From Parcubacteria group bacterium GW2011_GWC2_48_17 (GTDB lineage Bacteria > Patescibacteriota > Minisyncoccia > Phycocordibacterales > UBA10002), in contig LCPL01000001.1 of NCBI GenBank assembly GCA_001003605.1, positions 7,976 through 71,975 on the forward strand: a stretch of DNA of 64,000 bases, read 5' to 3'. Shown piece by piece: positions 1 through 21,258 of the stretch. Below the pieces are notes generated by a model. That model was given only the letters and a program-made list of their open reading frames with translations, made no database searches and was not told where the DNA came from. Positions within the stretch are counted from its first letter, which is position 1, and the number at the start of each line of letters is the position of its first letter. The position numbers and the translations under genes are program-made.

Positions 1-355
1 AAGAGTCCTTAACTAAATGAACCTGCCTTTCCTCATCTTCGTCCAGCCATTCATCAATAGCCACCATGTCTTTGAAATTTCTAGTGAGACGGTCTACTTT
101 CTCGAGGATGATTACCTTAATATTATGTTTCTCCACATAGTCCAGCATTTCAGTGAATTTCTTCCTCTGAGACTTTCCGCTCGCCGATTCAGAAATTGAG
201 AAAACATCACTCTTGGTAATAAGGAATCGTCTCTTGGGGTCCTCCGCATACTCCTTCAGGAATCTTCCTTGCGAAGGCAGAGAATATCCAGTTTCTTCCT
301 GGTCTTTTGAACTCACCCGCGCAAGTATTACGGCTTTGATTTTATTTTCGTTCAT
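1..355 (-). CDS. Serine recombinase (resolvase/invertase family). Only the N-terminal catalytic part is present; the 3' end runs off the window start.
   Basis: Reverse-complement translation from ATG at 353-355 gives MNENKIKAVILARVSSKDQEETGYSLPSQ.... This is the resolvase catalytic-serine motif (A/Y)RVSSxxQ..G.SLxxQ. There is no stop before the window edge. Confidence 0.6.
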   Translation of the reverse strand, partial: MNENKIKAVILARVSSKDQEETGYSLPSQGRFLKEYAEDPKRRFLITKSDVFSISESASGKSQRKKFTEMLDYVEKHNIKVIILEKVDRLTRNFKDMVAIDEWLDEDEERQVHLVKDS

Positions 356-393
356 ATTTTTATTTCTTAATTATAACTCATAACATCTATCTT

Positions 394-2985
394 TCAGAAA
401 GTCTCTGGATTCCAGAAATCATCTACTCTGTCGACTCCTTTGTCTGCTTTGGAACCCAAGAGCAAGGGCATGGGAGGATCCTTCTGTTTTGGTGCTGTCC
501 CTACGCTTGGGGACGGTACAACAGAGTCAACAGAGACAGTCTTTTTCCCGCCCTTTCTGATGTAGATCCTTTTTTGTTTTTGGGCCTCCCCGCGTTTAAT
601 GTGCATCCCCGTAACCGCGAGGTTAGTTTTTAATTCGTTTATTTTCTTCCCGAGTGCATTTGCCGTCTTTGGAAAATCAGGCTCCCGCTCAGGCTTGATG
701 TGTAGACCCTCTGCTACTTCAATAAGTGCATTCCGCAATTCTGTGGGCGTTCCTTCCCAATCTTCTCTGCCATCCATAAAGGTACGGAGGAGGACCGCTG
801 TTAGATTTTCAGCTAAGACCTCATCGTTCTGACTCGCGATGTTACTTCCATAGGCACTCAGAAACTCTTCCTTGGTGTATCCGAGTGCCTCCGCAATAGC
901 AGCGCCCCATCGCGTGAAGTCAGCCATTCGAGGCAGAGACGCTAATTCAATTGCAGGCTCTATCTGCATCGCCTTTTGCAGTACAGTGAAGATGCCCCCC
1001 AGTATGCTAGGCTGGTCCTTCTCGAATTCAGCGAGCAGGGCTTTCTCAGATTTTCTGTCTTCCTCACTGATTCGCTCCAATTCAAGCAGGATGCCTCGTT
1101 CCAGAATATCAGGTCTCGTCGCCACCTGATTGATACCGTTTAGGATTAGGACACGGCGGAAAGCGTATATGATGTCGTCATCATCAGTAAAGAGTTCACG
1201 CTTCGAGAAGCCATCCCCCGTAACCGCTTTACAAAGCGCATCGGAATCTCGGCCAGAAATACGAGATATATTGTCAAATACAATGCACCAGTGGTGGTCG
1301 AATATCTGAACCAACTCATTTTGGTCTCTCGGAAATCCTATCGTTTCGACTTCGGAGGGGTCTCCAATCTTCTTTAATAATCGGCAAAAGAATGTCTTCG
1401 ATGCTCCTTGAGCTCCATAAACAATCAGAATAGGATGAGGAATATTTGGAATAAAAGACGCGACTAACCACACCAGCAACAGAAGCCGATGCTTTCTATC
1501 AGCAACATTTAGATATTTGAGTAGAAGGGTTATATCTCCATCTTGAACGGGTTGACATTGCGCCTTTTGGTGGGAATAACGTCGAAAAAGAATAGGCGGA
1601 TTTGCGACAATCTCCCAGCTCGCCTTTGTAATTTTTACTGCACGCCATTCCGTGTCGGCGAGGTCATACCATATCGCGCCCTCGTGTTCCGTCAGTCGAT
1701 TCCACAGTTTGATTAAGGGACCGTCAAAATATGCCTTTCCTTCAAGGACCGTCAAGGCAGTTTTGAGAGCTTCGGTGTTCGGTGCTTTATGTCGAAGTTG
1801 CCAAAAGCGTCGGGCCAACCACCGCCGACACATTTTTGAACGACACGACCATACTTCCCGATGCGACCCCACAGTGAGCTGAAGGAAAGGATATTTATAC
1901 TGATTGTGGAAGAGGACAACTTTAGTCTCAGGGTCTTCAAGCACCATACGCACGATTACGTCGCTTTGAGATTCATGCGGTACTGCGACCTTCGTACCTT
2001 CTTCCGACTGTTTGCTTCCATATCCCTTATTTGCCAACTCTCTCGCAGCGCTTTTGAAGTCAGCCTTATGATTCAAGATGGCATACGCCGAGAACTTGGT
2101 ATAGCTTCTATCTGGCTCAAAGGGTGTACTCGATGAAAAGACATGAAGCAGACCGTTGCCATTGTAGTTTTCGGTCGCCGATATTCCGCCTTCTATCTTG
2201 CCAGGCCGCTTCCAGTATCTTTTCTCCCCGCATTGCCGTTCAATCTTCCAGCCAAGAGGTGCCAGTATCTCTTCCCAAGTGGCCCTAGTGTTGTAGTCAT
2301 CTCCAGGCCGATTAGAGTCAGGAAGTTGCGGCTTAGGATTGAATATCTTTTGTTCCTCTACTATCTCGTTAAGTACACGGGCAGTGTCCCAGAGTGATTT
2401 TCGTTGTTCTGGAGTAATTTCAGGTATATGCTCGAGGGACCCATTCAAGTGCTCATAGCCCTCTGTAGGCGGCTCTACAATGAATCCTCCTTCACCTCTC
2501 GTTTCTATGACTGCTTTTTTCTCCCCGCTTTCATCGAGACATCTCGCTAACGGGGTATTTCTCCCAATCTCCTTACTTCGATAGAGAAGGTGATATCCGT
2601 TGTTGATAGTTTTGGATAGAGGGAGGGTTTTTAAAAGCTCTAGGGCTTCCGCTGGCAGCAGTGATTTCCACGCTTCAAAAAACCCTTTCCTGACTTTCTC
2701 GTCAAAGTCTATGACCTCAAGATTCCCACTCACTCTTCCGCAGACAATTCCCCAACGCTTCTTGTTGGTCCAACTTGAGATCTCCGACTCATTAGGTAGT
2801 CGGCTTTGGTATTGCTTCCACCCATCACCATGATGCTTTTCACCGTCTACTAGCGGGAGCAAGCAGAGCCCGCAGGAGTTGATTAACTTCCGAACATACT
2901 GAATTATTTTAGGTTGTTCATCCATGACTTTCTCTATATTTAATTTTCGCGAGTAAGTCGAAGTACCTGACGAGTGTATTCGCAA
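394..2985 (-). CDS. Phage/plasmid primase-helicase. It has a Prim-Pol-like N-terminal region and a D5/P4-type P-loop NTPase C-terminal domain. An alternative start lies at Met21 (~2925).
   Basis: 863-aa ORF. Walker A motif GAQGASKT. Overall architecture matches P4-alpha/D5-type replicative primase-helicases. It sits next to a serine recombinase. Confidence 0.6.
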   Translation of the reverse strand: MRIHSSGTSTYSRKLNIEKVMDEQPKIIQYVRKLINSCGLCLLPLVDGEKHHGDGWKQYQSRLPNESEISSWTNKKRWGIVCGRVSGNLEVIDFDEKVRKGFFEAWKSLLPAEALELLKTLPLSKTINNGYHLLYRSKEIGRNTPLARCLDESGEKKAVIETRGEGGFIVEPPTEGYEHLNGSLEHIPEITPEQRKSLWDTARVLNEIVEEQKIFNPKPQLPDSNRPGDDYNTRATWEEILAPLGWKIERQCGEKRYWKRPGKIEGGISATENYNGNGLLHVFSSSTPFEPDRSYTKFSAYAILNHKADFKSAARELANKGYGSKQSEEGTKVAVPHESQSDVIVRMVLEDPETKVVLFHNQYKYPFLQLTVGSHREVWSCRSKMCRRWLARRFWQLRHKAPNTEALKTALTVLEGKAYFDGPLIKLWNRLTEHEGAIWYDLADTEWRAVKITKASWEIVANPPILFRRYSHQKAQCQPVQDGDITLLLKYLNVADRKHRLLLLVWLVASFIPNIPHPILIVYGAQGASKTFFCRLLKKIGDPSEVETIGFPRDQNELVQIFDHHWCIVFDNISRISGRDSDALCKAVTGDGFSKRELFTDDDDIIYAFRRVLILNGINQVATRPDILERGILLELERISEEDRKSEKALLAEFEKDQPSILGGIFTVLQKAMQIEPAIELASLPRMADFTRWGAAIAEALGYTKEEFLSAYGSNIASQNDEVLAENLTAVLLRTFMDGREDWEGTPTELRNALIEVAEGLHIKPEREPDFPKTANALGKKINELKTNLAVTGMHIKRGEAQKQKRIYIRKGGKKTVSVDSVVPSPSVGTAPKQKDPPMPLLLGSKADKGVDRVDDFWNPETF

Positions 2986-3323
2986 TCTCGGCGGCTTGGT
3001 CGTACGTCAGTTCACGCCCATAGTCCGTGGCGATAATCTGTCGTAGCTCTTCGATTTTCGTCGCGCTTAACATAAATACTTCCGTGCGCGTTACTCCTTA
3101 TTTTTCTAAGCGACTGCTCGACTGCAGCCGTGGAGTTCATTTGGCTTCAACAAATTTTGGAAATCAATACCCCATAGAAAATAACAGAACGGCCATGTTG
3201 AGCCGTTCTGTCTCTACCTTCTTATGAAGTTCGATTTACAATTCTGGAAAAGAAATACAGATACCTATATTTAGAGCCATCAAAGAAATCCAGAATTGAG
3301 AGATTCTGGAAAATTTGACTATC

Positions 3324-4010
3324 CTACATTTTCATTCTGTAACCCCTTCCTCGAATGCTCTCGATTATTTCAGGGTGATTTGCTGGCCCCATAGCTATCT
3401 CCAGTTTCTTCCGCACTTCGTTCACAGCTGATCTAACGGCATCCTTTTGAGTTTCAGTAATGGTTCTATGTTCTCCATGGTGCAATATCGCTGTTCGTCC
3501 GAGGCGGTGTATGTTCTCTATGGAAGCGTGAAGTTCTTCGAAAGATACGACCTCCCCCCACTCTCTTAAAAGCCGACGAAGTATAGCCAGTTCGTTTCCT
3601 CCAGCAGGAGTAGCGGTGTTTTTTTCGCAGTAGGTTAGGACAGTGCTGTTGTTCTCGCCTCGTCCTTCACCGAATAGACTTCTTGGTCCGCCGAGATATT
3701 CTACAAAATACTTTCTAAGTAACGCTGTTGTATATCCACGGATCTCAACATGGCCGTCATTTGTCTCCCATGTCAGTTCTGTGGGTGGTATATCATTGCC
3801 CCCAACTAATGTCCCTCTTATTTCCCTAAGCATGCGAATAGCATGCTGTTCAGGGGTTTGATGCGCATCAAAAGTCGGGTTTGTATTGGCCGTGATAATA
3901 GATAAGTCAAAGTCTATAGGAGCATGATATCCGTCAATCTCACGAACTCTCTTCTCGATAAGTTTTCGAGTGAACCACTTTAATTGTTCTTGGAGTATTT
4001 CGCTTACCAT
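3324..4010 (-). CDS. DNA-binding protein with a C-terminal OmpR/PhoB-type winged-helix domain
   Basis: C-terminal ...VSFEELHASI...VRSAVNEVRKKLE...IESIRGRGYRM matches the trans_reg_C pattern (RxLRxKLE...I.TVRGVGYRL). N-terminal domain not recognised. Confidence 0.4.
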   Translation of the reverse strand: MVSEILQEQLKWFTRKLIEKRVREIDGYHAPIDFDLSIITANTNPTFDAHQTPEQHAIRMLREIRGTLVGGNDIPPTELTWETNDGHVEIRGYTTALLRKYFVEYLGGPRSLFGEGRGENNSTVLTYCEKNTATPAGGNELAILRRLLREWGEVVSFEELHASIENIHRLGRTAILHHGEHRTITETQKDAVRSAVNEVRKKLEIAMGPANHPEIIESIRGRGYRMKM

Positions 4011-4042
4011 GCTTCATTCATTTAAGGTGCCGCGTTCTAATA

Positions 4043-6073
4043 CTAAGAACTAGAGATAATCTGCATCAGCCACTCTATAGATGCCTCTCCCTGCTTTTTC
4101 TCGACACGGTTCATCTCTCGGCCGTGCACGAGGGCGTTTCGATATTCCTTTATGTTAAGGAAATGTTTTTGCACCTCGCCTGTAGAGCCGAAGTCCTCCT
4201 CGAATATCTCCCAGTTCTTTCCGATGATGCCGTTGTAGTCCATGATGTCACAGAAGCCGAGCCGATCAATATTCGTTAATACGCTCTCTTTCTCGTATGG
4301 ATGTCGCTTCATTCTCTCCTCTATTTTTTTCGCGACTCGATCTTGAATGTCTGAAGGTACATGTGTCCAGTAATCTGGACCGAAATCCAACGCTAGCTTG
4401 TCGTTGAGATACATACGAGTCAGTTTTTCGAGCTCGTCCACCACTTTCGTTGGTGCATCTTGCATCTTTGTTTCTAAAGCCGCATGGTCTCCTATGACAC
4501 GTTCAATATGACTGAAAATCAAATTGGCACGGTCTTGAATAAAACGATCATAATCATCGGTCCAGATTGCCGCGTCCTCCTCTGAGGGAATAAGGTGCGA
4601 CTGCATAATTTCCTGAAATACAGGGTTGCCTGCTCTATACTCACTCAAATAGTCCGAGGGACCGCGCTTGCTTATCTCCCGATTCAATTCTCCAGGTATG
4701 AACGCGAAATTCATCAGCAAGTGCCGATGCTTGACCTCCTTGCTTCGTAAAAACGCTTTCGGAAATATGTGATGCTTTTCACTATGGTTGTAGTCGGAGC
4801 ACAATTGATCATCTAAGGTGATGGGTGTACCTGTCCTAAAATGACGTGGCTGTTGCAACGAGAGCAAACACAAAATCGCGCTCTTAACCGCCGAACGTGT
4901 ATAGTTCATCAAACGGGCAATATCTGTCGCCTGTATGTTAATAGGAAAGTTCATTTGGGGAGGGCTACTGTGCATTGCTGGGGTAAAATAATCCACCGCA
5001 TCAAGACCCATCACAGTCGGAGTGGAAGCACCATATCGTTCCGAAAAAGCGGAGCGCCAAAACCAATCTTGAATGAATTTCGCCTGTGTTACATTTAAAG
5101 ACCGAGAAGGTACTTTAGCGTACATATAAGCCACCAGAGCGATCATGGAAGGGTACGGAATGAAGTCATAGATGCGAACCCCGAGGTGGCTCCGCAGAAA
5201 ATCAATCGCAGCGCGGATAGCATCACTCACCTCCTGCCAGTGCTGTTTTATTTCCTGATTAGTCAGTTGTATTTGGTACGACTTGGTGCAACCGTTTTTT
5301 ACTACCAATGCCAAAGCTTGTGCCACTACTTCTTCGGCAATCCTGCCGAAGCCCGATTCCTCCAGAGTGGAATTGAGTTCCTTTGTCTTTTCTTTCAGGT
5401 CGAAGTCCTCACTCCACGTATTTGCGACTACTAAATCAAACAGGCCGAGCCGCTTCCCTCCTTGATTGATTCGTTCAAAAATCGTAATCGCATCGTCCAA
5501 GTGCTTGCCCTTTACCTCAACGATGGACATCGGATAGTTATTAAGCGCAGTCTTGCACTTCTTAAACACCCGCCGTTTCTCGGGAGTCAGCGAGTCATAT
5601 ATCTCATCTTCGCCTTCTTGGGCGAAAAAGCGCCAGAGCGAAATTGTCTTCTGTTTGTCCTCCTTTCGCTTCACGCTCTCGAATTTTTCAGTTTCCAAAT
5701 CGAAGCAGATCTTACGGTAGTCTTTGTCCCTTCCATTTTTTGAAGGTAGGGAAAGTCCCTTTGCGGTTACATAAAGAGAGGTGATTCTCTGTTGCCCATC
5801 CAGTATCATTTTTATCTGGTCATAGTTCTCGGGAGTGGGTAATTTCAGTTCTGGTATATCGCGGTAGTGGTCCCGATATTCCTGCGGGGTAATCCAGTAG
5901 AAGAAGCTTCCTATAGGGAACCCTTTATAGATGCTGTCGAAGAGCTTGGCAACCCGCGTCGCCTCCCAAACATAATCACGCTGAAAACGCGGGATTCGCA
6001 ATACGCCTCGTCCCATTTCTGACATAACATCATTTAATGTGCGCGGACGCACCTCTATGGGAGACTCATCCAT
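4043..6073 (-). CDS. GmrSD-like DUF262/DUF1524 nuclease, a putative type IV (modification-dependent) restriction enzyme. It carries an extra ~170-aa C-terminal region.
   Basis: N-terminal IPRFQRDYVWE and DGQQRITSL are the DUF262 (ParB-like) signatures. The middle HSEKHHIFPKAFL is a DUF1524 His-Me-finger-like motif. The C-terminal tail contains RNALVHG, an Rx4HG-like motif. Confidence 0.65.
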   Translation of the reverse strand: MDESPIEVRPRTLNDVMSEMGRGVLRIPRFQRDYVWEATRVAKLFDSIYKGFPIGSFFYWITPQEYRDHYRDIPELKLPTPENYDQIKMILDGQQRITSLYVTAKGLSLPSKNGRDKDYRKICFDLETEKFESVKRKEDKQKTISLWRFFAQEGEDEIYDSLTPEKRRVFKKCKTALNNYPMSIVEVKGKHLDDAITIFERINQGGKRLGLFDLVVANTWSEDFDLKEKTKELNSTLEESGFGRIAEEVVAQALALVVKNGCTKSYQIQLTNQEIKQHWQEVSDAIRAAIDFLRSHLGVRIYDFIPYPSMIALVAYMYAKVPSRSLNVTQAKFIQDWFWRSAFSERYGASTPTVMGLDAVDYFTPAMHSSPPQMNFPINIQATDIARLMNYTRSAVKSAILCLLSLQQPRHFRTGTPITLDDQLCSDYNHSEKHHIFPKAFLRSKEVKHRHLLMNFAFIPGELNREISKRGPSDYLSEYRAGNPVFQEIMQSHLIPSEEDAAIWTDDYDRFIQDRANLIFSHIERVIGDHAALETKMQDAPTKVVDELEKLTRMYLNDKLALDFGPDYWTHVPSDIQDRVAKKIEERMKRHPYEKESVLTNIDRLGFCDIMDYNGIIGKNWEIFEEDFGSTGEVQKHFLNIKEYRNALVHGREMNRVEKKQGEASIEWLMQIISSS

Positions 6074-6182
6074 ACACGAAATTTAAGCATAAAGCAGCAA
6101 CTTCTCCAACACCGACGAGCGGGACAACAAAAACGGCAGGGACCACATTGGATCCCCGCCGTTTTGTGCTGCCGATATTCAG

Positions 6183-6911
6183 TTATCGTCCTACCATCGC
6201 GAGCATTCCCTTAATCGCCTCGCTACAGTCACTCCTACTCAAGGACTCAATATTTGCCATGTACTGCTCCTTCTCTGCACCCTCGTCCAAGTTCTGCATG
6301 GCGAGGTCACGGAGGTATGAGATTTGCCTCTCGGAAGCAGGTACTGGTTCCATCTCTGCGCCCTCCTCTGATTCTTCGTTCCCCGAGCGTTCATAGGGGT
6401 AATGAGGGTCATCAGCAACGCTTGCTTCCTCGATTGCTGTATGCGACTGAATTGCGAATTCTGGCATAGATTCGAGGTCTTGAGTGAAGATGTCTGAAAG
6501 CCCCGTGGTGCGTATCACTGCATCAATGAATGAGGACTTTTGGGCCATCTTGATTGTCTTATTGATGTCCCCGCCATTTGATTTGGCGACTGCCGCTCCT
6601 CGCCCTTGTCCAACAATATTGTCTCCGCGTTTCAAGGTGCAGACATAGGCAACGACACCTTCTGTCTTCCCGAATGACTCCAAAGTCTCAGAATCCTTGT
6701 GGAAAATTGCCGTAAGTCCATAGACTGACAATAACTTTTCCGCACCGCCTTTCGAGAGGGAGCGTCTTCCTTTGATAACATAGAAGTCGGCGTTTACGGC
6801 CAGTATTGGCAGAACTCTTGAGATGAAGTAACTGCGGCGGTTGATAAGATCATCAACACCCGCTCGGAATTCTGTTATGCCGCCTGTGGCGGTTGCGATT
6901 TCGGTTGTCAT
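6183..6911 (-). CDS. Putative Rad52/Sak-family single-strand annealing protein (tentative)
   Basis: Segment ...GQGRGAAVAKSNGGDINKTIKMAQKSSFIDAVIRTTGL resembles the conserved Rad52-family core (..G.G....A.KsAeTdAlKRa...GlG). It sits in a block of mobile-element genes. Weak, motif-level only. Confidence 0.3.
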   Translation of the reverse strand: MTTEIATATGGITEFRAGVDDLINRRSYFISRVLPILAVNADFYVIKGRRSLSKGGAEKLLSVYGLTAIFHKDSETLESFGKTEGVVAYVCTLKRGDNIVGQGRGAAVAKSNGGDINKTIKMAQKSSFIDAVIRTTGLSDIFTQDLESMPEFAIQSHTAIEEASVADDPHYPYERSGNEESEEGAEMEPVPASERQISYLRDLAMQNLDEGAEKEQYMANIESLSRSDCSEAIKGMLAMVGR

Positions 6912-6933
6912 GATTAAGATATTAATTTGATAA

Positions 6934-7239
6934 TTACCTTCGGATTGTTTGACAAATTTGGTAAAGGTAAACCACTCTCGGCTTGCGTTTGGTCGTCTTC
7001 CTTCCGTTCTCCACTACGGGGACGAGCGTAACCCCCCGAAGAGCTTGTTCACCCAGAATAATTTTGCGGTTATGCAGGAACCACCATTGCAGGGTGTTCT
7101 TTACATCCGTTTCGGGATTAAACTCACGGGCGGTATCTTTACCGAAGCGCCAACGCACTTGCGCCCGTAGAAACCAAACAGCCGCCCTGTGTTGCGTGTA
7201 CGCTGACGCTGGAGGACCCAGCCATTTCGAGATGCTCAT
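6934..7239 (-). CDS. ArdC-N-like (DUF1738) ssDNA-binding domain protein, paralog 1
   Basis: Shares with its neighbour the pattern W...G..I.xGEqALR.VT........ + PR.VYL(Y/F)...Q. This is reminiscent of the ArdC N-terminal domain (W..lG..VkKGEkg..v...VFnvsQ). It is the tandem paralog of 7317..7640. Confidence 0.35.
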   Translation of the reverse strand: MSISKWLGPPASAYTQHRAAVWFLRAQVRWRFGKDTAREFNPETDVKNTLQWWFLHNRKIILGEQALRGVTLVPVVENGRKTTKRKPRVVYLYQICQTIRR

Positions 7240-7316
7240 GGGTTAATGACTTACGAATAATCACGACGCCGTTTTGATATCGGTAGCGTAAGACACTGTC
7301 ATCATTCTGATTTTTG

Positions 7317-7640
7317 TCATGGCTGGACGAACCTCGGACCATTGACTTGGAGGAAGTAAAAAAGATACACAGTTCTCGGTATCTTTTTAATCACTTCTCC
7401 TTTCTCATCTTTCATCTCGATATAAGTGACAGAGCGAAGAGCTTTTTCACCTGGCTTTATCCGATAGCCCATTGAACTCCACTTTGCAAAGGTGAAGCAG
7501 TTGGTATAAGGGTCATACTCCATTGCCGCTTTCTTTCCGAATCGCTCCACGATTTGCGCTCTGACGGACTCCCGTGTCGTAGGCGAGCCTGTGTAGGCCG
7601 ACACTGAAGCATCATTGATTACTTGGCTTATGCTGTTCAT
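7317..7640 (-). CDS. ArdC-N-like (DUF1738) ssDNA-binding domain protein, paralog 2
   Basis: FTFAKWSSMGYRIKPGEKALRSVTYIEMKDEKGEVIKKIPRTVYLFYFLQV matches the ArdC-N pattern. Paralogous to 6934..7239. Confidence 0.4.
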   Translation of the reverse strand: MNSISQVINDASVSAYTGSPTTRESVRAQIVERFGKKAAMEYDPYTNCFTFAKWSSMGYRIKPGEKALRSVTYIEMKDEKGEVIKKIPRTVYLFYFLQVNGPRFVQP

Positions 7641-8379
7641 AAATGTAAGGCATGTTTAATAACCGCGTCCGACTAAGTGCGGAAGAAGTTTGTTTTATTA
7701 AATTACTTCCTCACTAATTTAGTTTTATTTTAGGAGTGGGTATGGGAGTTGTCTTTCAAAAAGTACCGACTTGGATTGGGGTGGTGGGTATGGGGAGTGC
7801 GTACGGTTTTTCTTCGGTTTCAAAGATGAACCGCTCACAAAAAATTTCTAAAAAATCTAGAACTTCTTGCGTACTTCCCAAAATCAGAACAGAGGTATAT
7901 TATTCACTTGATAACTGAATATTCCGCCCGCAAGGGCATAGCCTAAACCGCTCGATTCATTTCAAAGCGGCACGGCTCCTAATCCCATGGAAGATTCTGA
8001 ACCCCACGTTCAGCGCTCTTCCATGGGTATATCTCCGAAAGGAGGTATGGAGCCGCAAGGCTCTGCTGGCGTGGGGCTCAGTGTTTATCCCTCTCCACGC
8101 CAGCCGTTATCGGCTGTTTTTTGTTTGAGTAGTTCATTGACGGCAGCAGGTTTCGAGAAGTAACGCAATGTTTCTGCAGGAATTTGCGTCCCACTCTCGT
8201 TGTGCGGAAGTGCTTCAAAAACACTTTTTATATGGTCGCCGTTTGCTGAGAAATCGGCAAAATCATCATAGGCACAAACAAAAAAACAAACACAGGTAGC
8301 CACTTTCTGGCTTCTACTTTTTAAAGGGGCGAATGCCCGCCTGCTGCCGTCAGTGAATTATTAAATTATTAAAAGATTT

Positions 8380-9198
8380 ATGAAAAACATAAATTGGAGA
8401 ATGATTTCAGTGCTTATCATCGGCATTTTTGTAGGCGCTCTTGTTACAGGCATGGTGCCCGTAAGTAGTGCGAGTTCAGGAGAAATAACTGTGTGCGTGA
8501 GAAAAGATGGGGCAATGCACATGATTGGAGAAAACTTCGCGCGCTCCAGCTGCAGGAAAGGCGAACAGTTAATCTCGTTTAATGCGCAGGGCCAGGTCGG
8601 CCAGCAAGGACCGCAAGGTGTCGCTGGTAAAGACGGCGCAACAATTCCTTGTGTTCACACAGAGGGCAATGATGTGTATTTTGATGGGTGCAACGTTCAT
8701 GTTCGTGATGGCAGTGGCGATACATTTGGTGCGACAAATGGACTCGGCAATCTCATTATCGGTTACAACGAAGATACAGGCGGTCCTCACGACCGAACAG
8801 GCTCTCATAACTTAGTCATTGGTCCTTATCACACTTTTAGCTCCTTTGGAGGAATTGTTGCTGGCCAATTCAATACCATAAGCGCAGGTAGTGCTTCTGT
8901 TTTAGGGGGAGTAGGCAATGTGGCGAACGGAGTCCAATCAGTCATTTCTGGAGGGAGCGGCAACATTTCTAAAGGAAATAGTTCATCTGTGAGTGGGGGT
9001 ACTTTCAACACTGCGAGCGGAGATAATTCATCCGTCAGCGGCGGCAAATACAATGAAACAAGCGGCAATGCTTCTTCAATAAGCGGCGGAGATCATAACA
9101 CCGCTACGGCCAACCAATCTTCGGTGAGCGGCGGGCGTGAGAGAACCGCAACGGGGTTTTTTAACTGGGCAGCTGGCGCGCTATTCCAGGCAAACTAA
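8380..9198 (+). CDS. Secreted or membrane-anchored glycine-rich repeat protein. It has a short collagen-like segment and about eight tandem ~11-aa repeats.
   Basis: N-terminal TM/signal ISVLIIGIFVGALVTGMVPVSSA. Collagen-like GQQGPQGVAGKDG. Repeats of the form S.VSGG..N.ASG.(N/S)SS(V/I)SGG run to the C-terminus, resembling a phage-fibre or beta-helix-type repeat. Confidence 0.5.
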   Translation: MKNINWRMISVLIIGIFVGALVTGMVPVSSASSGEITVCVRKDGAMHMIGENFARSSCRKGEQLISFNAQGQVGQQGPQGVAGKDGATIPCVHTEGNDVYFDGCNVHVRDGSGDTFGATNGLGNLIIGYNEDTGGPHDRTGSHNLVIGPYHTFSSFGGIVAGQFNTISAGSASVLGGVGNVANGVQSVISGGSGNISKGNSSSVSGGTFNTASGDNSSVSGGKYNETSGNASSISGGDHNTATANQSSVSGGRERTATGFFNWAAGALFQAN

Positions 9199-9247
9199 TT
9201 CACGATGCAACTATGAAAATGGTGCTTTACTCGTAGCGGCTTTTTGT

Positions 9248-10213
9248 ATGGAAACACTTTTATCTTTGTACGGCGTCGTAGGTTTGGTATACGGCATATA
9301 TAAAGTGACGCAGTGGGGGCACGGAATAAGTCCAGACCTTGGAGAGAATTCATCGCGAGTACTTTCTTGGTTCATGTTATTAGTATGGGTGCTTCCTCTT
9401 GCGATTATTCTCTGGCCTTTGATTCCTTTGTGGGAGCGTTGGGAGAGAGAGGAACCAGTAAGAATCTTGAAGGGCAAGATAATAGACGAATGGGTACAAA
9501 AAAGAACAGACGAACAGATTGGCGAATATCGGCAAAAGAAACAGAAGGAACAGCAAGGGATTGACGCTGAAGTAGAGAGGCGTTTCCGTGAATTTCGAGA
9601 TATGTTAACGAGCTTTGGAACTAGAGAAAGTAGAGGGAATCTCATGCGAGCAATAAGGGAAGACTCAACTGGATGGACCACTCGAAATAAAGAAAGAATA
9701 AGAAACGAAATTGAAGAAGAAAAGCTACACCTTCCAGGTTGGCAGAAACCAGACGAGCATATCGAGAACCTTGACCATCTTTTGATGCCAGCTTCACCGC
9801 AGGAACAAAAAAGAATTGACGCTGAAAAAAGGGTTGATACTTTGATTGACGCTTCCGAAAAGAAGGGTACTGGAAATAAGAAGACTGCGTTATTGCTACT
9901 CAACAATAATAGAGCTGCAGTTAATGAATATATTGAAGAAACGATTTTAAGTATAACAGGGCTAGGTACGGTAAACGGCAGTATGCTTAATGATAAATTT
10001 TTTAAATCTAAGGAAGCAATTGGTACGCTGCACGGCAGCATACTTGCCCGTGAATGTTTTAAAATTATAATCAAAAAGGAAAAAATAGAACTGGGAAATA
10101 ACATTGATGATCCACGAAATTATCCACCAGAGTACAGGGAGCTTTTGGATATAGTTAGGAGTTATGTTGCTATGTTTCTGAATATCTTGGAAATGAAAAA
10201 TAGAATAAAATAA
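9248..10213 (+). CDS. Hypothetical membrane protein with a charged coiled-coil-like C-terminal region
   Basis: The ORF-track start at 9137 overlaps the upstream gene, so Met at 9248 (METLLSLYGVV...) is preferred. Two TM segments are followed by a K/E/R-rich region. Confidence 0.4.
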   Translation: METLLSLYGVVGLVYGIYKVTQWGHGISPDLGENSSRVLSWFMLLVWVLPLAIILWPLIPLWERWEREEPVRILKGKIIDEWVQKRTDEQIGEYRQKKQKEQQGIDAEVERRFREFRDMLTSFGTRESRGNLMRAIREDSTGWTTRNKERIRNEIEEEKLHLPGWQKPDEHIENLDHLLMPASPQEQKRIDAEKRVDTLIDASEKKGTGNKKTALLLLNNNRAAVNEYIEETILSITGLGTVNGSMLNDKFFKSKEAIGTLHGSILARECFKIIIKKEKIELGNNIDDPRNYPPEYRELLDIVRSYVAMFLNILEMKNRIK

Positions 10214-10223
10214 TGCTAAAGAT

Positions 10224-10685
10224 ATGGAAAACATAAATATCGCGGACAAAAAACAATGGAACGGGGACCTAATATATTCGTTCGCCTTTATCGTACTCGC
10301 GTGGGTAATAACACTGTATGGAGTTTCTGCTTCATCCCTCTTTGACCCAACTGTTCACCCGTTCATAGTGAGGCCGTATATCAGCCTTCTGTACTTCTTG
10401 TCGGGTCTCGGTTTCCAGGCCGACCCGATATACTTTGCCTCTGCATATGGATTGCCAGCCCTCTTTTCAGTCATTGTTATCTGTCTGTCAGTTCGTGCGG
10501 GGAGGGAAACGCCTACGATAGAAGGAGAAGGAGAGAGAAAGTTCTTCGGGTTTCTCACCAACAACTGGCAAGGGGTTATTCCTCTGCTTCTCATCATCGG
10601 AGCAGTATTAAATATTCTCTTTCTGTGGCATGTTTTTGCCGCGGTGTCTCTCTTTGAGCCGAGCATCTTCCCTGAATTGAATTAG
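10224..10685 (+). CDS. Hypothetical integral membrane protein (about 4 TM)
   Basis: 153-aa ORF with four hydrophobic helices. No recognisable motif. Confidence 0.4.
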   Translation: MENINIADKKQWNGDLIYSFAFIVLAWVITLYGVSASSLFDPTVHPFIVRPYISLLYFLSGLGFQADPIYFASAYGLPALFSVIVICLSVRAGRETPTIEGEGERKFFGFLTNNWQGVIPLLLIIGAVLNILFLWHVFAAVSLFEPSIFPELN

Positions 10686-10728
10686 GCAAGCGAACGGGTA
10701 AGCAGTGGGACTTTAGTATAGTTAGACA

Positions 10729-11256
10729 ATGGAATATGTTGAGGACTGTTACCATATCACGCCGTGTGTCATTGTGAAGGGAATGGATGAGAAACGGGCG
10801 GATATAAGTTTTTGGACAGAACGCGAGAATGGCGGGTTATTCCTATTCGCTGCTGCGCCCAATTGTGAGGCACAAAGGATCGAATTAGAGGAATTCTTCT
10901 CGCCAATCATAGACAGGACCTACTTCCGATGCGAATGCGGCCGACGCGCCTTTAAGCTCTATTTGCCTCCTCATAAGACCTTGTTCAAGTGTCGCACCTG
11001 TTACAAGCTCCGATATATCCTCACGACATTCAACCCGAATACAGAGCATGGACGGGCTCGATATCAGTTCATACGAATGGAAAAATTATCACAGCAGAGA
11101 ATGGAGATAAGTAAACCGATGTATAAAGGTCGCTATACGACACGTTTCCTACGATTTCTCCGCCTCTGTGGGCGTGCGGGGCTGAGCGATGTAGTGGACG
11201 ATGCCAGAAAACTCATGGAAACTATCCACGCACCCGTGCCAACCTCAACCATTTAG
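10729..11256 (+). CDS. Hypothetical protein with a CxxC...CxxC zinc-ribbon-like motif
   Basis: FRCECGRR...FKCRTCYKL gives two CxxC pairs. Confidence 0.35.
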   Translation: MEYVEDCYHITPCVIVKGMDEKRADISFWTERENGGLFLFAAAPNCEAQRIELEEFFSPIIDRTYFRCECGRRAFKLYLPPHKTLFKCRTCYKLRYILTTFNPNTEHGRARYQFIRMEKLSQQRMEISKPMYKGRYTTRFLRFLRLCGRAGLSDVVDDARKLMETIHAPVPTSTI

Positions 11257-11406: not shown

Positions 11407-12009
11407 TTCTTGCAGAATAATAAAGTTTCCTTATTGGAGATGGGGAAACAGGCAACCCGTCAGTGTTCCGATACTGATAAATACCCTAGGGGGGCATGTG
11501 GAACTCATCAGAGTTCCATCATCTCCAAAAATGTGGGACCTGAACTTATAATTCAGAGTTCACATGCGCCCTTAGGGTATTTTGTTTGGTCGGATTGTCT
11601 CTGTGAGTTTCTTTAAAGGAATTTACAGGGGCAATCAGCCCTTAGGCGGAATCCTAGTTACCCGTCGCATCGTCATTATCAGGATTCTTGTAATTAAATT
11701 TCGCCTATGACAATACGAATCGGAAGAAGCGCACGAACTGGTAAATTCACCAGCGTAGCACGGGCAATAGCTCGTCCAAATACGCATGTAGTGGAAACAG
11801 TGTACATTCCTCCTAAACGCAAAAAGCACTGCTAACATAGCAATGCTTTAGCGTTAAAAAGAAAAACAGAGAGCCGCCTTATACTAGGTTGGTGGTTTTC
11901 TGTTGCTAGGATTATACCTCTTTAACAAGGAGGCCGCATTATATTACTTGTGGATAATTGAGAGTTAGGTTAGCCCAAGAGGCTGAAATATGGTAGATTC
12001 TTTAGCACT

Positions 12010-13485
12010 ATGGCGACACTACAATTTAAGGGGAAGTCGGCGGTATGGAATCACCATCTCTCGGTGCCGTATCACACGCTTGAGGAGAATAAGAAGCAGT
12101 CCCTTAAAGGCAAGGACAGCGACGAGAACTTAATCATTGAAGGCGATAATCTTCTCGCGCTCAAAGCACTCCTGCCGAAATATCAGGGGCGGGTGAAGTG
12201 TATCTATATTGACCCGCCGTACAACACGGGTAACGAGAACTGGGTCTATAACGATAATGTGAACAGCCCGACGATGCAGGAGTGGGTAGGCAAAGCCGTT
12301 GCCAAAGACGATCTCACACGGCACGACAAGTGGCTGTGCATGATGACTCCTCGCTTGAAACTCCTGAAGGAACTACTTCGGGAGGATGGGGGGATTTTTA
12401 TTAGCATCGATTACAACGAGGAGTCGCGGTTACGATTGCTGATGGACGAGATTTTCGATGAGGGGAACTATCGAAATACATTTGTCGTGTCGCGTGTAAA
12501 GAAGAACATCCAAGAGACAGAAAAAGTAAAAGCTGTAAACTTCGGGTACAACTCCGTTGTTTTCTATGCACGGACAGATTCTTGCCTTATCAATCCGCCA
12601 AAGCGGCCACATAGAAAAGAAGAGCGGTGGCATGCCTTTGATGCACCTGGCATACGCTCAACGATGGAATTTGAGATTTTCGGTGCAAAGCCTCCTCAAG
12701 GGAGACACTGGATGTATTCGAAGGATCTCGTAGATAAAATGATTAAGGAAGGAACGGTGAGGAAAAACCCAAAGACGGGAAGTATTCAGTATTTACTTGC
12801 CGCTTCTGATTTCACCCTACTTGATACAAACTGGACCGACATCCAGGAATCAGATTCCCAGTGGGACTTCCTGAACGGAGAGAAAAATGTAGAACTCATT
12901 AAGCGAATTATTAAGATGCTTGACGAACCAGGCGCTATAATTCTCGACTCATTTGCTGGCTCAGGCACTACCGCTCATGCCGTTCTTGATCTTAATCGGG
13001 GAGGCGGTGACAGAAAGTTTATTCTCGTAGAAATGGAAAGTTACGCCAATGAAAAAACGGCGGGACGGGTCAGAAAAGTAATAAAGGATAGTGCCGACAA
13101 ATCTGGCTTCACCTACTACACCCTCGGTCCAGCGATAGACGCGGAGAATCTTTTGAGCGGTAAGCTCCCGACTTACAAGGAATTCGCCAAGTATGTCTAC
13201 TACCTCGCCACGGGCAAGAATCACCCGAACGAAGCGAAGATAAAGGAGAGCGACTCACTCGTAGGAAAGGCAGAGCACGAATCAATCTATCTTCTCTACG
13301 AGAAAGACAAGAAGAAGCTCAAGACGCTCGCTATAACCCTTGATTGGGCGCAGAAAGTCCACGAAAAGAACTCGGGCAGGAAGATTGTCTATGCTCCTGC
13401 CTGTTACCTCGACGACGAGGCATTGGAGCAGTACAACATCAAGTTTGTCAGTATTCCCTATAATCTCTTTGAGCGAAATGTGTAA
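12010..13485 (+). CDS. mod: Type III restriction-modification system methyltransferase (Mod), beta-class N6-adenine/N4-cytosine MTase
   Basis: DPPYN (motif IV) precedes DSFAGSGTT (motif I). LIIEGDNLLALKAL is the typical Mod N-terminus. A Res gene follows 5 nt downstream. Confidence 0.8.
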   Translation: MATLQFKGKSAVWNHHLSVPYHTLEENKKQSLKGKDSDENLIIEGDNLLALKALLPKYQGRVKCIYIDPPYNTGNENWVYNDNVNSPTMQEWVGKAVAKDDLTRHDKWLCMMTPRLKLLKELLREDGGIFISIDYNEESRLRLLMDEIFDEGNYRNTFVVSRVKKNIQETEKVKAVNFGYNSVVFYARTDSCLINPPKRPHRKEERWHAFDAPGIRSTMEFEIFGAKPPQGRHWMYSKDLVDKMIKEGTVRKNPKTGSIQYLLAASDFTLLDTNWTDIQESDSQWDFLNGEKNVELIKRIIKMLDEPGAIILDSFAGSGTTAHAVLDLNRGGGDRKFILVEMESYANEKTAGRVRKVIKDSADKSGFTYYTLGPAIDAENLLSGKLPTYKEFAKYVYYLATGKNHPNEAKIKESDSLVGKAEHESIYLLYEKDKKKLKTLAITLDWAQKVHEKNSGRKIVYAPACYLDDEALEQYNIKFVSIPYNLFERNV

Positions 13486-13490
13486 CCTCT

Positions 13491-15989
13491 ATGCTGAAGG
13501 ACTATCAAAAAAAGGTGGTGAAGGAGATAGAACGCTTCTTTAACCACTTGGACAGCGCACGACAGAAGTTTGAGGTTATGGGGGCCGATATGCAGTCAAC
13601 TGTCCAGTCGCTTGGCGGCTTTCTCGCACTCACTAACGAATACAAGGGGTATGTTGACCGCCCCCAGACAGGCATCGGCGCTTCCTATCCTCGCGTCTGC
13701 ATCAAGATGCCAACAGGTGGCGGAAAAACCCTAATTGCAATTGAGACCATTCGCGCGTATCAAAACCTCTTCGCCAAGAGCAAGACGGGGCTGGTAGTAT
13801 GGATAACACACCGCGACCAGATATATCGGCAGACCATAGAGAATCTACAGAATAAAGGGCATGTCTATCGGCAGTTGCTGGACCAAGCAAGCGGCAATCG
13901 GACGCTTATCATCGAAAAGGGCCAGGCGCTACGCAAACAGGATGTGGACGAGAACCTCGTCGTGCTTATGCTGATGATTCAGTCCGCGAGAAAGGACACC
14001 AACAAGATATTTGAGGACAGTGGCGGCTATACCGATTTCTTTCCGCCCGAAAACCGCTATGACCTCCACAAAGAGTTGCTTGGTGTCATTCCGAATCTTG
14101 ATAGGACAGTTGATACTGATACGCTCTATGAGCGTGCGCAGATTAAGACCAGTTTGGGAAATGTGATTCGTTCGTTGAACCCGCTCGTTATCATGGATGA
14201 GCTCCACACGATGTTCACCGATACGGCCAAAGAGACACTCGATGGGCTGAATCCCTCGGTGGTTATCGGACTATCGGCCACTCCACGGCAAGGTATGAAT
14301 ATTCTCTCTGAAGTGTCGGGACGGGATCTCAAGGTAGCGGACATGATTAAACTTGATATGCATCTCATTCCGCCTGTACAGAAAGATGACTGGCGTTCTA
14401 TGCTCATAGCCGTCAAGGCAAAGCGCGATGCGCTTGAGAACAGCGCGACTAAACTTGAGCGCAATAAAGGCGTATATATTCGCCCCATCGCGCTGATACA
14501 GGTTGAACGGACGGGTAAGGACCAGCGCGGACAGAAACATTTCGTACATAGTGAAGATGTTCGAGAGTTTCTCACTGCGTCTGGTGTCCCTAAACATACC
14601 ATCGCAGTGAAATCCAGTTCTCTTGATGAGATTAAACAGCAGAAACTTCTTTCCAAGGAGAGCGAGATTCGATATATCATCACGAAAGAGGCACTCAAGG
14701 AGGGGTGGGACTGTTCATTCGCGTATATCCTCGGAGTGATACCGAATGCAAAGAGCGACTCTTCAATGACTCAACTTGTGGGGCGCGTTCTGCGACAGCC
14801 CTATGCGAAAAAGACGGGAGTAGCCGAGCTTGACGAGAGCTATGTATTTTTCAGGAGCGGTAATGTAAAAGAGGTACTTGAAAAGATACAGGCGGGGTTT
14901 GATGATGAAGGACTCGGCGATCTGAAACTGGGTATAGCGGTACGCGACCACAGTGGTAAGACGCTTAACCCGACGCGAAATGTTGGCATCAGGAAAGAGA
15001 TTAAAGAGCAGTACCCCGAATCGCTCTTTCTTCCTATGTGGCTTGTGAAGCAGGGCAAGGGACTGTACCGCAAGTTTTCGTATGATACAGATATACGCCC
15101 ACGCCTTTCGTGGGATGTTCAGAAGGAGACAAAGCAGTGGCTCAAGGAGCTTATCCCGACGATTGGAAAGCCGCGGAGGGGACCGAAGGAGAGAATAATC
15201 ACTCTGAATAAAGAGGCGAGAATAGGGGGATCGGTTAAGGACAGAGGGTCCGTGAAGTTTGATGAACTCTATATCACTCGGCGATTCTCGGAAACCATTG
15301 AAAATGCGTTTATAGCTCATGAGATAGCCGAGGGTATTGTCTCCAAGCTCAGTGTCCAATTTTCAGCAGAGGTGCTCGATACGGATTCGGGATATATTGC
15401 TCGGGAGATTGAGCGGCACTTATTGGAGTTTAGGAAGAAACAGGAGCAAGGCATTTTTGAGAACCTCGTAAAGAGCGATTCGCTTGAACTCGTTGTCTCT
15501 GATGATGCCGAATCAGGATTCTCTATGCCCGACAAAGATAGCGTTGCAGGGAATATCCCTCCTGTCTATACGCTTAATCTGTACGAAGCGATTGAGCCCG
15601 ATTCTATGAATACGCTTGAGCAGGAAGTGGCGGACATCATTGAGGAGAGCCATAATGTGGTCTGGTGGGCTCGGAATAAGCCACAGAAGGGGTGGTATGC
15701 GGTCCAGGGGTGGCAGAGGGACAAGATACGGCCTGACTTTGTTATAGCCCGTAAGAACGATAAAGGAGAGCTTGAATTTGTTTATGTGGTAGAGAGTAAG
15801 GGTGAGCACCTTGCGGGAAATGAGGATACGAAATACAAGACTGCCGTATTCGAGAAGATGAACACGATGCGCAGGAGTGTGCAGAAAACACAGGTGCGGA
15901 CGACGACCGTAAAGCTCAATGACCAGTTTAAGTTTGAGGTGATTCCCGAAGGAAAGGAGGAAATTCAGTTAAAGAAGGAACTCAATTAG
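13491..15989 (+). CDS. res: Type III restriction enzyme Res subunit (SF2 helicase plus C-terminal PD-(D/E)xK nuclease)
   Basis: Walker A MPTGGGKT, motif II VIMDELH, motif III GLSATP. C-terminal PDFVIARK...VVESKGEH is the nuclease motif. Confidence 0.8.
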   Translation: MLKDYQKKVVKEIERFFNHLDSARQKFEVMGADMQSTVQSLGGFLALTNEYKGYVDRPQTGIGASYPRVCIKMPTGGGKTLIAIETIRAYQNLFAKSKTGLVVWITHRDQIYRQTIENLQNKGHVYRQLLDQASGNRTLIIEKGQALRKQDVDENLVVLMLMIQSARKDTNKIFEDSGGYTDFFPPENRYDLHKELLGVIPNLDRTVDTDTLYERAQIKTSLGNVIRSLNPLVIMDELHTMFTDTAKETLDGLNPSVVIGLSATPRQGMNILSEVSGRDLKVADMIKLDMHLIPPVQKDDWRSMLIAVKAKRDALENSATKLERNKGVYIRPIALIQVERTGKDQRGQKHFVHSEDVREFLTASGVPKHTIAVKSSSLDEIKQQKLLSKESEIRYIITKEALKEGWDCSFAYILGVIPNAKSDSSMTQLVGRVLRQPYAKKTGVAELDESYVFFRSGNVKEVLEKIQAGFDDEGLGDLKLGIAVRDHSGKTLNPTRNVGIRKEIKEQYPESLFLPMWLVKQGKGLYRKFSYDTDIRPRLSWDVQKETKQWLKELIPTIGKPRRGPKERIITLNKEARIGGSVKDRGSVKFDELYITRRFSETIENAFIAHEIAEGIVSKLSVQFSAEVLDTDSGYIAREIERHLLEFRKKQEQGIFENLVKSDSLELVVSDDAESGFSMPDKDSVAGNIPPVYTLNLYEAIEPDSMNTLEQEVADIIEESHNVVWWARNKPQKGWYAVQGWQRDKIRPDFVIARKNDKGELEFVYVVESKGEHLAGNEDTKYKTAVFEKMNTMRRSVQKTQVRTTTVKLNDQFKFEVIPEGKEEIQLKKELN

Positions 15990-17815: not shown

Positions 17816-17825
17816 GGAGAACACC

Positions 17826-18638: not shown

Positions 18639-18971
18639 ATATGAAAAGGAGGTCTCAGAAAATCAAGATGATTTTCATTGATCCTCCTCCGCCGAAAACG
18701 GAAGACGAAAGAAGGGACAGAGAGCGGAGGATTGAGCAGGCTTTTGACATCTTATTTAATGTTGTACTTAGGAGATATCCCAAATCTCAGAGTCGCTTCG
18801 GTAAATCCTCAGACTAGGGCTAGAAGCTGTCGTACATGAGTAAGGACCATCGCAGGATCTGCTACTGCCTTCTTCCAGTCATAGGTTCGGAACGCGTCCC
18901 GCCAAGCGAGCCAGTTAGTATGAAGCCCAAAATTTGAAAATCCGGTTTTCATGATACAATTGAATTTCATT

Positions 18972-19112
18972 TAGGACTTACGCACTTTATCATCTTTCGG
19001 TGTCATTCCACTGAAAAAGGGAATCCATGTTATGCAGTATAGCTCTGGATTCCCGCCTCTGCGGGAATGATGAGGAGAAAATGCGAGAGCAAGCTAAAGT
19101 GCGTAAGTCCTA
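18972..19112. mobile_element. MITE-like element, copy A, with perfect 18-nt terminal inverted repeats TAGGACTTACGCACTTTA
   Basis: taggacttacgcacttta at 18972-18989 and its exact reverse complement at 19095-19112. The interior carries the widespread gtcattcc...gcgggaat palindromic-repeat core. Confidence 0.55.
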
Positions 19113-21243: not shown

Positions 21244-21258
21244 TAAAAATCTGTCACC

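Follow-up and report, generated by a model that had tools for sequence, protein, structure and literature searches.

Type IV enzymes of the GmrSD family, such as Eco94GmrSD, BrxU/HEC-05, SspE and HEC-06, combine a DUF262 domain bearing a DGQQR motif, a helical linker and a C-terminal His-Me/HNH nuclease with the motif (E/D/H)H-x-x-P. GmrSD-like single proteins (BrxU/HEC-05 and HEC-06) have been shown to defend against phages, for which the DGQQR and (D/E)H motifs are both required (bioRxiv 10.1101/2024.01.29.577857). Fusions of a Swt1-like HEPN domain to "ParB (DUF262) with HNH" have also been described, with VNG7073 as the example (Table 1 in Anantharaman et al., 2013; PMC3710099). The DUF262-HNH-HEPN architecture is known from comparative genomics, and no experimental characterization of it was found in the literature searched. 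The present analysis concerns a 64,000-nucleotide stretch assigned to Parcubacteria group bacterium GW2011_GWC2_48_17 (GCA_001003605.1, contig LCPL01000001.1, positions 7,976 to 71,975 of the forward strand), hereafter the window. The window very likely begins inside an integrative, plasmid-like element of ~20.2 kb that lies in a chromosome of Candidatus Magasanikbacteria and carries defense cargo, including a three-domain enzyme of this kind, here called GmrSD-HEPN. The host, an uncultured groundwater bacterium, belongs to the candidate phyla radiation (CPR/Patescibacteria), whose members have ~1-Mb genomes and a poorly known mobilome.

The element can also be compared with described mobile elements. 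It resembles the tycheposons of Prochlorococcus in its streamlined-genome host, in having an integrase beside a tRNA and a primase/helicase module, in its modular cargo including defense genes, in the competition of several elements for one tRNA and in the lack of conjugation genes (bioRxiv 10.1101/2020.12.28.424599); the comparison is by features, not by homology. Tycheposons carry tyrosine recombinases in 910/937 cases and leave partial tRNA repeats (bioRxiv 10.1101/2020.12.28.424599), whereas the element described here has a large serine recombinase and no repeats, belongs to a different phylum, and carries an annealing protein, ArdC-N-like proteins and a LOOT RNA. With P4-like satellites and pipolins it shares an integrase-plus-replicase backbone and defined positions where defense systems swap. 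Unlike P4-like satellites, it has no helper-phage-related genes and its integrase is of the serine rather than the tyrosine type. Its replicase is an AEP Prim-Pol, in contrast to the TOPRIM primase alpha of P4 or the PolB of pipolins.

A first-pass annotation of the window had proposed an integrated element at positions 1-7700, encoded as a contiguous minus-strand block. All the genes it listed are present, in the order stated, and its limits proved too short. One boundary of the element is the 3' end of a tRNA-Asn gene, located ~1.3 kb to the left of window position 1, and the other lies at window position ~18.8 kb, giving a length of ~20.2 kb. The remainder of the window encodes GyrA, a sigma-70 factor and multiple T4SS_pilin-like (CPR-type pilin) genes, which identify it as CPR chromosome and not phage or plasmid. 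The replicase of the element is 95% identical to a copy annotated in Candidatus Magasanikbacteria GW2011. The GmrSD protein occurs in identical copies on 12 contigs from Rifle-type groundwater assemblies; one of the 12, DOPE01000037.1 (NCBI GCA_003514705.1, 78.7 kb), reaches 13.6 kb to the left of the window. Of the two end regions of the element, the window contains the following parts (aa, amino acids; ORF, open reading frame):

1..355, minus strand: N-terminal 118 aa of a large serine recombinase (PF00239, E=1.9e-15), the gene continuing past the window start
18813..18885: distal junction zone, in the 3' end of a host 46-aa ORF (18813-18953, minus strand); haplotypes that have the element part here from those that lack it

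The N-terminus of the recombinase was read by translating window positions 1-391. On a longer source contig the protein is complete at 558 aa, with the resolvase catalytic and recombinase domains (PF00239+PF07508) and the length (>500 aa) of large serine recombinases, so the edge-truncated serine recombinase proposed earlier is borne out. It matches the integrase family phrog_95 (3.6e-61) and has weak similarity to XisF/CcrB. The last ~13 nt of the gene run convergently into the 3' end of a tRNA-Asn(GTT) gene that is itself intact, and this overlap is kept in four independent elements. In locus L028 (comparison loci are given L numbers), the tRNA-Asn lies at 14235-14307 and the recombinase at 12571-14247, which corresponds to window coordinate about -1309. 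The tRNA is supported by the Rfam tRNA model (75.5 bits); ARAGORN, run on the window, reported no tRNA. Three assemblies stop at this tRNA: a k127 contig (20,446 bp) 126 nt into it, a Logan k31 contig 30 nt into it, and LCDO01000014.1 (GCA_000998685.1, 20,267 bp; k about 100) ~98 nt into it. Since these assemblies differ in k and each ends exactly k-1 nt into the tRNA, their graphs branch at the tRNA 3' end, and one junction is mapped there by assembly breaks.

At the other end, contigs that share a 333-aa gene (19502-20503) and a 61-aa ORF form two classes. The first runs into the NYN gene, like the window, and the second (L010, L014, L015 and L018) runs into Tmk, pyrophosphatase and radical-SAM genes. 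The window and the L010-type contigs are 99.8% identical down to ~18,867, and the identity is gone by ~18,819. When the k-1 flank is removed from each side, the 20,446-bp and 20,267-bp contigs both give a branch point at ~18,885. Because both ends coincide with assembly branch points, the polymorphic unit is ~20.2 kb and not 7.7 kb. The first-pass annotation had proposed looking for att-site direct repeats, and none was found to link the ends: no tRNA fragment or repeat of at least 12 nt is common to both, local alignment of the ends (direct and inverted) scored 14, equal to the shuffle mean, and only short two-copy matches occur near 7.7-8.3 kb. For serine integrases, att direct repeats are not expected.

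The second haplotype was read from L010 11690-13904 and L114 1-10784 (DUFX01000080.1), whose right flank is identical to that of the window. Its island encodes Tmk, a pyrophosphatase, two radical-SAM enzymes (one B12-binding), an HSP70-like protein, a LOOT RNA, an OB-fold protein and a tyrosine integrase, and this probably represents another island using the same hotspot. DUFX01000080.1 is labelled Woesearchaeota, an archaeal label that looks like a binning error. The 46-aa ORF is separated from the 61-aa ORF, in the host flank beside the junction, by a stretch with a perfect 18-nt inverted repeat (18972-18989 / 19095-19112) whose arms are 105 nt apart; it has no Rfam match at gathering score.

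Related elements were found via replicase homologs. A sister element from the same samples (L120/L121) is 72% identical to the window element in the recombinase, 69% in the replicase, 71% in the winged-helix (wHTH) protein and 82% in a 51-aa protein, with 25% in the annealing protein, 36% in the ArdC-N-like protein and 91% in GmrSD-HEPN. The 91% identity of GmrSD against ~70% for the backbone (L120 1964-3993 vs window 4043-6073) indicates a recent cargo exchange. In L120 the GmrSD-HEPN gene is split into 101 + 551 aa by a frameshift or an assembly error. The sister recombinase overlaps tRNA-Asn too, and the tRNA with its 5' flank is identical to that of the window element, so two elements compete for one site in one population. 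In L122, from another genus, the same backbone lies at tRNA-Asn, and the wHTH gene comes immediately after the annealing-protein gene, with no GmrSD. L123 has the same backbone including a plus-strand module, again with no GmrSD between these two genes, and carries DUF499 and DUF1156 genes where the window has a complete type III restriction-modification (R-M) system. These comparisons show two cargo positions. Slot 1 lies where the annealing-protein gene meets the wHTH gene and is either empty or filled by GmrSD-HEPN; the distal slot 2 is occupied by type III R-M or by DUF499/DUF1156.

Occupancy of the site varies further. L038 comes from a related species whose flank genes are 67-77% identical; beside the same tRNA it has a serine recombinase that is unrelated (26%). 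In a distant relative (L099), both flanks (DUF2914, 333-aa-like gene, VanY) are adjacent. In more distant elements that have the annealing protein in common (45-49%), a serine recombinase is accompanied by a replicase of another type (Toprim, Prim-Pol/VapE, HTH_36) and by defense cargo including type III and type I R-M, GmrSD_N+HATPase, SduA_C and Abi_2. The site thus has alternative occupants among relatives, and related elements occupy the same target elsewhere. The first-pass annotation had reasoned that a block conserved in synteny in all relatives would not be mobile; the block is not so conserved, and the proposal of a mobile block stands. A real, integrated mobile element with defense cargo is well supported by this comparative evidence.

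The nuclease in slot 1 and its domains lie at the following positions:

4043..6073, minus strand: 676-aa GmrSD-family nuclease fused to HEPN (GmrSD_N/DUF262, PF03235, 6e-32)
5423-6034, minus strand: its DUF262 domain, residues 14-217, followed by the helical linker
4514-4891, minus strand: its DUF1524-like His-Me nuclease, about residues 395-520
4046-4444, minus strand: its Swt1-like HEPN tail domain, residues 544-676

A search returned 2,503 GmrSD homologs. Alignments of the top 120 cover ~65-100% of the query, and the majority are full-length and include the tail. Motif conservation was scored in 34 homologs with 42-71% identity. Invariant in all of them are DGQQR (92-96), H434-H435-I-F-P438, N455, N464 and R645-N646-x3-H650. 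The last, R645-N-A-L-V-H650, is an Rx4H motif whose R, N and H never vary. Pfam scans of the individual members found GmrSD_N in 34/34, HEPN_Swt1 in 23/34 (E<=0.01, best 1.6e-9) and GmrSD_C in 1/34. For the window protein itself, the tail scored 19.1 bits against PF18731 (cut-off 27.5, E=0.0016), and the nuclease segment gave no match to Pfam DUF1524 even at E<=10. The best PADLOC models were candidate systems, PDC-M55C (2.8e-54) and, on the tail, PDC-M34B (1e-11); HEC-05 models scored 7.5e-44. The profile of the protein matches the BrxU structure 7p9k (E=1.6e-27) over residues 14-341 only. An AlphaFold2 model of residues 385-676 reached a pLDDT of 89.3, and a Foldseek search of this model against the PDB returned nothing significant.

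The protein thus has a DUF262 domain with DGQQR, a C-terminal His-Me finger with an acidic/His-His-x-x-Pro motif, and an alpha-helical tail with the Rx4-6H catalytic motif of HEPN domains. The evidence supports the HEPN tail as well as the divergent DUF1524-like nuclease. The earlier DUF262/DUF1524 (GmrSD-like) assignment holds for DUF262 by Pfam and, in a divergent DUF1524-like form, for the nuclease, and fails in that Pfam DUF1524 is not matched; the suggestion that the ~170-aa C-terminal tail is HEPN-like proved right, as it is a Swt1-type HEPN with an invariant Rx4H. GmrSD-HEPN follows the GmrSD family in its domain order, in its nuclease motif and as single-gene defense cargo on a mobile element. 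It differs from the family in a nuclease domain too divergent for Pfam DUF1524, with HHIFP instead of DHIYP/EHICP, and in the extra Swt1-like HEPN, which BrxU, SspE and GmrSD lack. It shares the three-domain architecture and active-type Rx4-6H motif of the ParB(DUF262)-HNH-HEPN fusions (Anantharaman et al., 2013; PMC3710099), and its novelty is modest given their cataloguing in 2013. In many homologs a fourth domain (DUF4357, DUF5655) follows at the C-terminus, but it is missing from the window protein. A 58%-identical homolog is a solitary gene among AAA_13 and HATPase_c_3 genes, which fits a self-contained system.

The comparisons show a backbone made up of the recombinase, a Prim-Pol/helicase, the 51-aa protein, the wHTH protein, the annealing protein, two ArdC-N-like proteins, the LOOT RNA and three membrane/Cys-rich proteins. 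Its remaining minus-strand genes are:

394..2925 (alternative 2985), minus strand: replication protein, AEP Prim-Pol with a C-terminal P-loop half (PF09250, 1.6e-9; phrog_19930, 2.9e-50)
2918..3073, minus strand: 51-aa protein, conserved (74-82% identity) at the equivalent position in L120/L121/L122/L123
3324..4010, minus strand: 228-aa protein with a C-terminal OmpR-type winged helix (PF00486, Trans_reg_C, 9.4e-8)
6183..6911, minus strand: 242-aa protein, probable Rad52-like single-strand annealing protein by fold only, with a C-terminal three-helix bundle (DUF3072-like)
6934..7239, minus strand: 101-aa ArdC-N-like paralog, which cross-matches the 107-aa paralog in L122/L123 and is 33% identical in alignment
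7317..7640, minus strand: 107-aa ArdC-N-like protein (PF08401, E=0.011, 16.4 bits against a cut-off of 22.6)

The two halves of the replicase have different relatives. The N-terminal half shares 35% identity with primase-polymerases of Cellulophaga phages, and the C-terminal half is 30-34% identical to proteins of small plasmids, both archaeal and bacterial; in L122/L123 the C-terminal half is paired with a DnaG-type Zn-ribbon primase instead of the Prim-Pol. In this half a Walker A motif, GAQGASKT, was seen by eye, and a weak VapE-like match was obtained (E=0.019); it had no PDB match, and profile searches did not assign a helicase family. The first-pass description as a P4/D5-type primase-helicase is retained in part, for an AEP/Prim-Pol that is D5-like, with a helicase half whose VapE-like match is weak. 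A P4-type (TOPRIM) primase, as in P4 alpha, was rejected because the domain is an AEP Prim-Pol. In the GCA_000998685.1 copy (L130 10001-12409) the replicase is 41 aa shorter (802 vs 843 aa).

The wHTH protein, proposed earlier as a winged-helix regulator, has its winged helix confirmed by the PF00486 match and is 66-71% identical across related elements; from its sequence it is predicted to be a backbone regulator or DNA-binding protein. The 242-aa protein matched a single profile, phrog_10048, a family without assigned function; profile-level searches of PDB and Pfam gave noise only and no sequence-level family. It has the Rad52-like beta-beta-beta-alpha core fold. Its C-terminal bundle is similar to many small bundles, including the C-terminal domain of Red-beta, a likeness that is not specific, and distant homologs of the protein occur in phages. 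The Rad52-like identity suggested by the first reading is accepted with moderate confidence. The two small proteins are mutually homologous and ArdC-N-like at the family level, as proposed. The 107-aa family comprises 172 clusters of ~100-aa stand-alone proteins, with an ArdcN match in 43/60 members (E<=0.1, best 1.5e-7), and its profile matches the ArdC structures 6i89/6sna at E=0.017. Neither the 101-aa nor the 107-aa protein has a C-terminal metalloprotease domain. Because of their size and their stand-alone ~100-aa family, they are ArdC-N-like domains and not ArdC.

The plus strand of the element carries the rest of the backbone (to 11256) and cargo slot 2:

8380-9198, plus strand: secreted beta-roll protein, 272 aa
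9248-10213, plus strand: membrane protein, 321 aa
10224-10685, plus strand: membrane protein, 153 aa
10729-11256, plus strand: Cys-rich protein, 175 aa
12010-13485, plus strand: type III R-M Mod (PADLOC MTase_III, 3.2e-115)
13491-15989, plus strand: type III R-M Res (PADLOC REase_III, 1.7e-130)
16005-16850, plus strand: 281-aa protein without assigned function, slot 2b
16895-17815, plus strand: M23 peptidase (Pfam Peptidase_M23)
17679-18638, plus strand: NYN-domain protein (Pfam NYN; weak PADLOC matches to NYN, 1.4e-5, and HEC-09, 6.7e-5)
18641-18817, plus strand: 58-aa ORF, slot 2b

The plus-strand module (8380..11256) has no Pfam, PHROG or PADLOC family. Homologs of its 321-, 153- and 175-aa genes in L123 show 39%, 50% and 42% identity (33-50% by blastp) and stand in the same order and orientation, adjoining the ArdC-N-like gene and divergent from it as in the window. 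At the position of the 175-aa gene (10729-11256), DOPE01000037.1 has a 174-aa gene with a 3-bp indel; the window is not identical to that contig. In the 754-bp gap between backbone and R-M genes, interleaved inverted repeats of 22 nt (91% complementarity) and 19 nt (79%) and a 31-nt palindrome occupy 11431-11641. Such an arrangement might form a structured RNA or serve as a recombination site.

The intergenic region from which the two strands diverge contains a structured RNA:

7940..8064, plus strand: LOOT RNA (Rfam RF03000), full length, 80.2 bits against a gathering score of 46.4

LOOT is a metagenome-derived RNA without assigned function (PMC7779021). The copy in the window has a promoter-like site 37 nt upstream (7875-7903) and a terminator-like hairpin ~40 nt downstream (8101-8126). 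Further full-length copies, scoring well above the gathering score, are present in related elements (L123 5785-5900, L124 11060-11187, L126 5824-5951 and L128 17094-17211) and in the alternative island of the L010 haplotype, beside the tyrosine integrase (L114 6533-6650). All five further LOOT loci are recombinase-bearing CPR loci. Compensatory changes were found in 18/23 pairs, and the RNA ends 20-50 nt before a membrane/secreted-protein gene in 4/6 cases. A model built from five LOOT copies detected no other copy in ~0.8 Mb of unrelated control CPR loci. Beyond the published description, LOOT is here placed in CPR genomes, inside recombinase-bearing elements. LOOT marks this class of CPR elements and is the most novel by-product of the analysis. 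With a host phylum and a genetic context assigned to this orphan RNA, its function becomes testable.

Several observations weigh against a mobile element of this extent. Neither a clean empty site (attB) nor a circular junction (attP) was present among the contigs fetched, and a VanY-based metagenome scan for an empty site returned only relatives at 74% identity or less. The exact crossover cannot be placed because the ends share no above-chance repeat. The alternative haplotype (L010/L114) has a different island beside the same flank, not tRNA-Asn, every copy of the exact element comes from a single aquifer population, and the Rad52-like and ArdC-N-like assignments rest on moderate scores. 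The region 11.3-18.8 kb could, moreover, have accreted beside a shorter element. The mobile unit would then reach only from tRNA-Asn to about 11.3 kb (~12.6 kb), and the R-M, M23 and NYN genes would form a separate accreted island. Shared gene order with relatives has been demonstrated only as far as the 175-aa gene, the cargo beyond it is wholly different in L123, the gap with the interleaved inverted repeats stands before the R-M genes, and islands are modelled to grow beside tRNAs in tycheposons (bioRxiv 10.1101/2020.12.28.424599). However, in all three assemblies the full 20.2-20.4 kb comes out undivided, branching only at its two ends, the defense cargo at the equivalent position in L123 suggests a cargo slot and not random accretion, and no second recombinase or att-like remnant was found at 11.3-12.0 kb. 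We regard the shorter unit as fairly unlikely.

Somewhat less probable still is a fixed, domesticated or decaying defense island at a recombination hotspot, varying through homologous recombination in its flanks. No excised form or empty site among the contigs, a divergence gradient in the 46-aa flank ORF of the kind typical of homologous replacement, and an element identical in at least 12 contigs from several samples are in line with this view. Against this view, the backbone genes are all intact, full-length ORFs, the recombinase-tRNA overlap is preserved, two distinct elements sit at the same tRNA in one population, and the family is spread over different genera, each time at tRNA-Asn. The first reading had left open an integrative element or a satellite-phage-like set. 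The tRNA junction, the sister element and the variable cargo uphold the integrative element. A phage satellite or cryptic prophage of the P4/PICI type, packaged with the help of another phage, appears very improbable. In its favor, the combination of integrase, primase-helicase, regulator and defense cargo recalls P4-like satellites and PICI-like tycheposons, phages have distant homologs of the annealing protein, and an M23 peptidase is present. Yet the ORFs of the element include no virion, packaging or conjugation genes; searches with PHROGs and Pfam gave no capsid, terminase, portal, tail or packaging-redirecting genes, no replicase relative was found in 2.9 million IMG/VR contigs, and the C-terminal half of the replicase resembles small-plasmid proteins. 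A prophage was rejected for the lack of structural genes.

For the integrative, plasmid-like element of ~20.2 kb, a mode of action can be proposed. The recombinase would insert and excise the element at the tRNA-Asn 3' end, and the Prim-Pol/helicase would replicate the excised circle. The annealing protein and the ArdC-N-like proteins, as putative single-stranded DNA binders, may act on single-stranded DNA during establishment. The cargo would protect the host, and hence the element, from phages. GmrSD-HEPN would act as a single-polypeptide defense enzyme in which the DUF262 domain (DGQQR) is predicted to bind or hydrolyze NTP, the His-Me finger (HHIFP...N...N) to cut DNA, by analogy with GmrSD/BrxU probably modified phage DNA, and the Swt1-type HEPN (invariant RNxxxH) to add RNase activity. 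A broader proposal is speculative. LOOT, the annealing protein, the ArdC-N-like binders, a swappable replicase and a site-specific recombinase might together define an undescribed class of integrative replicons, capsid-less and conjugation-less, that is widespread in CPR and serves as their main platform for defense exchange. Such elements might enter cells as single-stranded DNA, through natural competence or a CPR pilin/T4SS-like apparatus, and LOOT might be a cis-acting leader or regulatory RNA for the membrane/secreted-protein operon.

Some observations concern the host chromosome beyond the element. Window ~29.0-36.0 kb (L007 13375-20313) contains seven T4SS_pilin-like paralogs interspersed with two bAvd/23S_rRNA_IVP genes. 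These are accessory genes of diversity-generating retroelements; in the stretch that was annotated, no reverse transcriptase was seen. At window 20722-22314, the sigma-70 gene and the next gene are called as 173 + 351 aa, and in the sister assembly GCA_000999035.1 (L008 1838-3201) as 374 + 77 aa, a frameshift or fusion difference between near-identical strains.

To conclude, the locus provides a well-delimited example of how CPR bacteria acquire and swap anti-phage systems, at a tRNA-Asn site contested by several serine-recombinase elements with two cargo positions. GmrSD-HEPN is an intact candidate for testing, with predicted DNase and RNase modules that point mutations could separate. The element itself is a sound, rather unremarkable case of an established type, and the LOOT-marked family of CPR elements is the more interesting lead. 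The LOOT RNA, a by-product of this analysis, may be the most useful part of the finding.

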